From assembly GCA_000165345.1 (NCBI GenBank), contig CM000436.1, forward strand, positions 640,001 to 704,000: DNA of 64,000 nucleotides, read 5' to 3'. Positions 45,399 to 46,229 of the stretch are shown here, piece by piece. A program made the translations under genes and the position numbers. The stretch's first letter is position 1. Every line of letters starts with the position of its first letter. The notes beneath the pieces were generated by a model. That model was not told the origin of the DNA and ran no database searches. It saw only the letters and a list, made by a program, of their open reading frames with translations.

Positions 45399-46229
45399 TT
45401 AGAAAATGATTCTAAAAATAATTACTAATATTAGAAAAGCAGTTAAATAAAGAACTATTTTAGTTATTCTTCTCCTTCGATCTCTTTCAGAAATTACATT
45501 AATCTCGTGTAGTAGGTGAAAACTGTCTGTATTAATTTCTGTTTCCTTAATTTTATCTTGAAAAGTATCAATAGTAACTTGTTCAGAGGCAATCTCATTT
45601 AATAGAATATTCTGAATACTCATTAACTCTTTCGTGGACTCCTTTAATTTAATTAACTCTGCAAAACAATGATTGGTTAATATTGGGCAATAAATGAGTA
45701 AAATAAAACCAAACCTCTTCGTATAATAATGTCACTTACCTTGGTTTTGTTCAAATAAGAGTTGTTTTTCCAATTCTTTAAAATCTGGTAAAGGCATATA
45801 TTGGGAGGTATGGACGAAAGAAGAAACAGAAGAGACAGAGGTATTTGATAATGAATTCTTTTCTAATTGGTTTCTTAAACAATTATCAACTTCATATCTT
45901 TCTAAGGAGAAAATAGTCTGAAAATGAAATAATAGATTCTCAAATAACAGTTTATAATGAGGATTTATATTGTTTTCCTTTTCCAATAACATAATACAGT
46001 ACTTAAAAAGATGTTGAGTTTCTTTAATTTTGAGATCTCTCTCAATATAACAACTTTCATTGTTTAATGAGTTAATATTTTCTCCAAAGTTTAATTCTTT
46101 CAAGTAATCTATATTTTCCTTAACCTGCTTAAAACATTTGCAAACGATTTCGTCCATTCCTTCTTTAATTAGAGTACTTTTGAAATTTTCAAAGTCACTT
46201 TTCAATGACAAGCAATTACCATAATTCAT
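45399..46229 (-). CDS. Tail-anchored Q-SNARE (syntaxin-like), 2 exons: join(46229..45740, 45658..45399)
   Basis: An 81-nt phase-1 intron (GTAAGT...TTTTGCAG) joins track ORFs 45732..46229 and 45399..45623 in frame. The product has an N-terminal helical region, a heptad SNARE-like segment with a central Gln (NILLNEIASEQVTIDTFQDKIKETEIN), a basic stretch ERDRRRRITK and a C-terminal TM helico IVLYLTAFLILVIIFRIIF. Confidence 0.5.

Follow-up and report, generated by a model that had tools for sequence, protein, structure and literature searches.

We analyzed a 64,000-nt window of Cryptosporidium parvum DNA (NCBI GenBank assembly GCA_000165345.1, contig CM000436.1, positions 640,001 to 704,000 of the forward strand; all coordinates below are positions in this window), in which an earlier note had joined two minus-strand open reading frames (ORFs) into a tail-anchored Q-SNARE by removing a short intron. 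The locus at 45399..46229 is best read, with a probability that we put at roughly 80%, as one two-exon gene with an 81-nt intron, encoding a 249-aa tail-anchored, syntaxin (Qa-SNARE)-like protein that is divergent and detectable within its genus only. Sequence comparison strongly supports the gene model of two exons and a phase-1 intron, because the intron is conserved throughout the genus and independent public annotations use the identical junction. The earlier reconstruction is right in substance and improves on several public records. The gene model is correct and already known, since both the junction and a SNARE label are present in the public annotation of C. parvum and its sister species; what we describe is an ordinary gene that is misannotated in older records.

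Evidence for a two-exon gene

Two minus-strand ORFs lie at the locus, one of 165 aa (46229..45732) and one of 74 aa (45623..45399). In the spliced model, exon 1 (490 nt; 45740..46229, minus strand, as are all parts of the gene) runs from the ATG at 46229..46227 through codon 163 to the first base of codon 164, and exon 2 (260 nt; 45399..45658) holds the last two bases of codon 164, codons 165-249 and the TAA at 45401..45399. Removal of the intervening 81 nt (45659..45739; 29.6% G+C) joins G 45740 to the AG at 45658-45657, which creates Glu164 and a 750-nt frame of 249 aa plus stop. The retained-intron frame of C. parvum has a single stop, a TGA (45732..45734) that lies in frame within the intron, three codons past the donor, and terminates the 165-aa ORF. 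The ORF coordinates, the phase and the 81-nt interval from 45739 to 45659, which starts with GTAAGT and ends with TTTTGCAG, were all as the earlier note had claimed, and the joined frame is open from the ATG at 46229 to the TAA at 45399. Two details needed correction. The ORFs, said to lie in different frames, belong to the same frame, which one TGA interrupts (both 46229 and 45623 equal 2 mod 3, and 81 = 27 x 3). The fused product, given as 250 aa, is 249 aa long.

The 3,790 nt around the gene are 100% identical to C. parvum CP141125.1 (chromosome 8), and the 165-aa ORF is identical to C. parvum Iowa II XP_627159.1/EAK89446.1. Judging by the locus tags that it carries in other records, cpbgf_8002590 and CHM_8g2590, the gene is probably cgd8_2590 of C. 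parvum chromosome 8. In a search of the literature, cgd8_2590 turned up in no paper text; its sole occurrence was in supplementary tabular data of Isaza et al. 2015, where one row lists 0.976, 0.1127, 0.0094 and 0.083 for cgd8_2590 against CHUDEA8_2590, presumably identity, synonymous divergence (dS), nonsynonymous divergence (dN) and dN/dS.

To place the intron in a comparative context, orthologous DNA was aligned from C. hominis, C. meleagridis, Cryptosporidium chipmunk genotype I, C. ubiquitum, C. canis, C. felis and C. muris. The intron was found at the same codon and in phase 1 in all eight species, C. parvum included. Together with the G at 45740 just before it, the 5' splice site GTAAGT (45734..45739) is invariant as GGTAAGT in seven species, and the pyrimidine-rich 3' splice site TTTTGCAG (45659..45666) keeps its terminal AG, with the conserved start of exon 2 next to it, in all aligned species. 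Both G|GTAAGT and the acceptor AG share alignment columns in all seven intestinal-clade sequences, and C. muris has GTAGGG...TTAG, likewise in phase 1, at the homologous codon. A TTAAC at 45676..45680, ~18 nt upstream of the 3' AG, is a candidate branch point by consensus match only; it aligns with TTAAC in C. meleagridis and with CTAAC in chipmunk genotype I. The intron lengths in the eight species are 81, 81, 81, 84, 83, 78, 87 and 82 nt, with 83 nt in C. ubiquitum and 82 nt in C. muris. A length of 81 nt is typical for C. parvum, since published mean intron lengths for this species are 84-99 bp; ~11% of its genes bear introns.

The intron diverges much faster than the exons on either side of it. 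When splice-site bases were left out of the calculation, identity to the window in the intron, exon 1 and exon 2, respectively, was 93%, 98% and 96% for C. hominis, 82%, 94% and 90% for C. meleagridis, 74%, 87% and 85% for chipmunk genotype I, 57%, 84% and 77% for C. ubiquitum, 38%, 70% and 65% for C. canis, and 33%, 63% and 65% for C. felis.

The claim that the two ORFs are "joined exactly" holds for the junction itself, but not for its distinctiveness by frame alone: 56 different GT..AG pairs of 30-400 nt yield an open frame at this locus, and we therefore rejected the idea that an open frame makes the splice pair unique. The junction is singled out by its consensus splice sites together with the cross-species comparison. 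GTAAGT is not enriched in the window (25 observed versus ~44 expected from base composition). Baptista et al. 2022 report that the introns of their own C. parvum annotation are 100% supported by RNA-seq, and we infer that the C. parvum record with this junction belongs to that annotation.

Layout of the predicted protein

The spliced product is laid out as the earlier note had described: a helical domain at the N-terminus precedes a heptad segment, a basic stretch next to the membrane and a single C-terminal transmembrane (TM) helix. Hydropathy and the layout of an AlphaFold2 (AF2) model agree with this. The N-terminal helical bundle spans residues ~1-108 (45906..46229), and the orthologs of the intestinal clade all begin with MNYGN or MNNGN. 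It is followed by a Ser-rich linker of low conservation (residues ~109-150; 45780..45905), which has indels between species and a predicted local distance difference test score (pLDDT) below 50 over residues 109-151. The SNARE-like heptad motif runs from L165 (layer -7) to N217 (layer +8) at 45498..45656, and its first residue is encoded by the first complete codon of exon 2. A basic juxtamembrane stretch, RDRRRRITK (residues 222-230; 45459..45485), in which R227 is invariant among the intestinal species, leads into the C-terminal TM anchor IVLYLTAFLILVIIFRIIF (residues 231-249; 45402..45458). The best 19-residue Kyte-Doolittle window starts at residue 231 with a mean of 2.86, and this is the only strongly hydrophobic stretch of the protein. 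The tail-anchor reading holds because the hydrophobic residues 231-249 are the last of the protein and are preceded by the basic residues 222-230.

This layout is shared with Qa-SNAREs such as yeast Sso1 and syntaxin 1A, which likewise consist of an N-terminal helical bundle, a flexible linker, a heptad motif of ~53 residues, a basic stretch and a TM anchor. The spacing from motif to anchor is also as in syntaxins, with ~11 residues between layer +8 and the TM helix. In the AF2 model the N-terminal domain appears as four shorter helices, followed by a disordered linker and a single helix (152-251) that includes the TM anchor; a clear three-helix Habc domain, as in syntaxins, is not apparent in this prediction.

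Similarity to Qa syntaxins

Sequence and structure searches lend modest support to the view that the product is a SNARE of a divergent, syntaxin-like (Qa-like) type. In an exhaustive HMMER search against 1.84 billion representative proteins, with a query built from three orthologs that have naturally spliced models, the sole match besides Cryptosporidium proteins was P0022 (E=1.3e-4). This match is a syntaxin-1-like protein (Pfam SNARE 2e-8, syntaxin-1A 5e-18), and hhalign of the ortholog alignment against it gave a probability of 95.6%. A word-indexed search with a 7-species profile returned Cryptosporidium proteins only at E<=10, and apart from the syntaxin-1-like match homologs are detectable within the genus only. 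In the PDB, Sso1 was the best SNARE-region match of a full-length profile of seven orthologs (E=0.13); it ranked second overall, after a beta-lactamase that matched the N-terminal part (E=0.057). With a profile of the motif only Sso1 came first (E=0.033), and full-length Sso1 accounted for the top two hits of a Foldseek search with the AF2 model (E=0.011 and 0.016).

The motif profile was also scored against a small local set of reference helices. Three Qa references scored 22.9, 17.6 and 10.5 bits, and each of these values was reached by none of 500 composition-preserving shuffles; the 10.5-bit reference was an unverified syntaxin 1A H3 fragment. VAMP2, SNAP-25 N and SNAP-25 C, the only R, Qb and Qc references and checked against the PDB, scored 2-3 bits. 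In the PDB, in the library of 1.84e9 proteins and in this local set, the motif was closer to Qa helices than to Qb, Qc or R helices.

Register and 0 layer of the motif

No gaps interrupt the motif in the alignments to Sso1 and to the syntaxin-1-like protein, and the stretch from ELIKLKES (layers -7/-6) to IDTF (layers +1/+2) is gap-free in all alignments to syntaxins. The likeness to Sso1 and syntaxins covers layers -7 to +3, where ELIKLKESTKEL...IDTF is matched by ELLKLEKSMAEL...VDVI. The distance of seven residues between I186 (layer -1) and I193 (layer +1) equals that in syntaxin 1A and, together with the gap-free register, places the 0 layer at E189 (codon 45584..45582), rather than at Q190 (codon 45581..45579; the two codons occupy 45579..45584) or Q197. 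The earlier note had pointed to a central glutamine in IASEQVTIDTFQDKI, but the glutamines of this segment are off the 0-layer position: Q190 is one residue out. Nor is the position conserved, since the species have E, E, K, K, S, D, T and N at residue 189. Most species have Q at residue 190; C. felis has K there and C. muris has E. A local register shift that brings Q190 into the core is possible.

SNARE motifs have been defined as segments of ~53-60 residues with 16 mostly hydrophobic layers (PMC11344281). In the Cryptosporidium proteins, layers -7 to +3 are hydrophobic and conserved, apart from the 0 layer and layer -3 (Q/H). From +4 to +8 the layers are polar (T, T, F/R/S/Q, H/R/Y/N and N/D/E) and lie within a conserved N-T-D...H-L..E pattern, which sets these proteins apart from syntaxins. 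A further difference concerns the 0 layer itself, where syntaxins have a near-invariant Gln; in the register common to Sso1 and the syntaxin-1-like protein, the Cryptosporidium residue (E189 in C. parvum; E/K/S/D/T/N overall) is neither Gln nor Arg. The earlier assignment of a syntaxin/Q-SNARE layout is supported by the layout itself and by a weak, Qa-only similarity, and not by Pfam or by a 0-layer Gln.

Alternative readings of the protein

Several results weigh against the preferred reading of a two-exon gene for a syntaxin-like SNARE. Unlike syntaxins, the spliced product and its orthologs (nine in all) had no SNARE, Syntaxin or other family match in Pfam at E<=10, and the profile test of the fused product that the earlier note had proposed was in this sense failed by all nine. 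The matches to known SNAREs are all weak and lie mainly over the N-terminal half of the motif. A SNARE that is competent for fusion would not typically combine a non-Gln 0 layer with polar layers +4 to +8. The AF2 model, built from 3 sequences, is of moderate confidence (pLDDT 63). Finally, an exact look-up in a collection of 15 billion proteins showed the 249-aa sequence to be absent, and a scan of metagenome contigs gave 0 matches to the exon-exon junction, a result that is uninformative.

It is conceivable, though we consider it rather unlikely, that the protein is a genus-restricted SNARE of syntaxin descent that has lost the 0-layer Gln and has polar membrane-proximal layers with the conserved N-T-D...H-L..E signature, and that it is perhaps no standard fusogen. 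If so, its role as a SNARE could be regulatory or inhibitory, or it could bind partners that are just as divergent, at a parasite-specific compartment.

The gene model could also be right and the product no SNARE at all. Its resemblance to syntaxins would then be an effect of composition or heptad repeats in a tail-anchored coiled-coil protein specific to this lineage. Such an explanation, which we regard as unlikely, agrees with the empty Pfam search, with the single homolog outside Cryptosporidium, with the lack of a conserved Gln or Arg at the 0 layer and of hydrophobic layers +4 to +8, and with PDB matches at E=0.03-0.13. It sits poorly with the convergence of independent searches on Qa syntaxins in the same gap-free register, in which ELIKLKES-KEL fits EIxKLExSIxEL and IDxF/I fits IDxI. 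A composition or heptad effect is also at odds with the shuffling result (0/500 at the Qa scores), given that R, Qb and Qc helices, which are coiled coils as well, remained at background. Moreover, the distance from motif to TM helix and the overall layout agree with those of syntaxins, and UniRef labels four orthologs as SNARE-type proteins: those of C. hominis, C. ubiquitum and C. muris are named 't-SNARE coiled-coil homology domain-containing', and that of C. canis 'SNARE domain-containing'.

Quite improbable, in our view, is a different type of SNARE, such as a Sec20-like Qb or a Use1-like Qc SNARE of the endoplasmic reticulum. Sec20-like and Use1-like SNAREs are typically divergent and often have no canonical 0-layer residue. 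The non-Q 0 layer would fit such a protein, and family-specific divergence could hide the orthology. The only SNARE-related line that Pfam returned was indeed Sec20, over residues 169-245 of the spliced C. hominis ortholog (E=0.13; 12.6 bits versus a cutoff of 27). However, this sub-threshold match occurred in one of the nine orthologs and was treated as noise, and the similarity above noise was exclusively to Qa syntaxins, with neuronal SNAP-25 and VAMP2 as the sole Qb, Qc and R references.

Under the preferred reading of a divergent Qa-like SNARE, splicing would remove the only in-frame stop and join codon 163 to codon 165 through the split Glu164, with the intron placed exactly before the SNARE-like motif at its first heptad layer. 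The C-terminal anchor would be inserted post-translationally. The heptad motif may then supply a Qa-like helix that zippers with three partner SNARE helices, so that the four-helix bundle draws two membranes together, and the N-terminal bundle would probably regulate this zippering. The trafficking machinery of the parasite is reduced, and the gene would add to it one divergent protein of the syntaxin-like kind. Its odd 0 layer is a small curiosity that should not surprise specialists.

Public annotation of the locus and the fate of the intron sequence

The junction ..EQNQ|ELIKLKES.. is already used, in identical phase, in the public models of C. ubiquitum cubi_03484 (252 aa), C. canis OIY81_88 (249 aa), C. 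felis HWI79_3421 (253 aa) and C. muris CMU_026600 (256 aa). The same junction is found in C. parvum cpbgf_8002590 (QOY40016.1/WRK34014.1; GCA_035232765.1, CP141125.1). This last record bears the flag 'partial', and its final residue is 236, at a distance of 41 nt from the in-frame TAA (window 45399..45440). It is without the last 13 residues of the anchor, although the frame runs 13 codons further in identical DNA, and its early end looks like an annotation artefact.

Older or automatic models share the locus and the start codon with the spliced gene, but stop at the TGA or translate the intron instead. The first kind is represented by C. parvum Iowa II XP_627159.1 and C. tyzzeri TRY49798.1, both of 165 aa and ending at the intronic TGA; since the C. 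tyzzeri protein terminates in ..QNQGK just where the C. parvum ORF does, the C. tyzzeri intron would hold a stop too. The second kind comprises C. hominis XP_667952.1 (276 aa) and the proteins of C. meleagridis (277 aa) and chipmunk genotype I (279 aa), which contain 27-28 intron-encoded residues because the intron is stop-free in these three species. To judge from the comparative evidence, the 165-aa and the 276-279-aa models are annotation errors. The intron-encoded hydrophobic stretch FGFILLIYCPILINHYF of the 276-279-aa proteins could pass for a second transmembrane segment.

Among the four closest species, variable sites at the first, second and third codon positions numbered 17/17/42 in exon 1 and 17/14/25 in exon 2; for the intron read in frame they numbered 5/12/10, so that the intron has no coding signature. 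At the position of the C. parvum TGA, C. hominis, C. meleagridis and chipmunk genotype I have TTA or TTG, and C. ubiquitum, C. canis and C. felis have TAG. A kept intron would bring 1 stop into the frame of C. parvum, 13 into that of C. ubiquitum, 2 into that of C. canis and 4 into that of C. felis, and the 83-nt intron of C. ubiquitum and the 82-nt intron of C. muris would shift the frame. That the 81 nt are kept, either with two separate small genes of 165 and 74 aa or as a 27-aa insertion, possibly obtained by intron retention or TGA read-through, is therefore most improbable: such a reading could appeal to the intron length, a multiple of 3 in six of the eight species, to the three stop-free introns and to the single TGA of C. 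parvum, but a stop-free run of 27 codons has a probability of ~13% at this composition and the three species with open introns are close relatives, the kept peptide FGFILLIYCPILINHYF would put a hydrophobic segment (mean hydropathy 1.7) immediately ahead of the heptad motif, and the 74-aa ORF alone would be without motif layers -7 to -4. On the same comparative evidence we rejected both a coding role for the stop-free introns of C. hominis, C. meleagridis and chipmunk genotype I and a read-through of the TGA in C. parvum.

The practical value of the gene model lies in annotation hygiene, as the public records include a truncated 165-aa 'hypothetical protein', intron-bearing proteins of 276-279 aa and a 236-aa protein with a shortened anchor. 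Counts of SNAREs or tail-anchored proteins in Cryptosporidium that draw on such records would miss or misread this gene.

Neighboring genes

The SNARE-like gene is located between two serine hydroxymethyltransferase (SHMT; PF00464) paralogs on the same strand (47359..48696 and 43824..45140, both minus), an arrangement that is kept in all eight species. The two paralogs are 23% identical to each other. An acidic, Ser/Asp/Glu-rich ORF is present on the plus strand (46871..47290), between the SNARE-like gene and the gene for the 445-aa SHMT. It encodes 139 aa from an internal ATG, or 147 aa from a TTG at 46847; no Pfam family is on record for it, and each of the Cryptosporidium species compared has a gene of 133-139 aa called there.

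At the position of the canonical NKYSEGFPGTRYYGG of the 438-aa copy, the 445-aa SHMT has STFSMFNNDKNMELNS, but it keeps the pyridoxal phosphate-lysine motif TTTSHKTLRGPR. Conversely, in the 438-aa SHMT the lysine motif is replaced by SNTQSSLGGPKG (H->Q, K->S). Because the active sites of SHMT are located at the dimer interface and the motif losses are complementary, the two proteins might form an obligate heterodimer with one working site.
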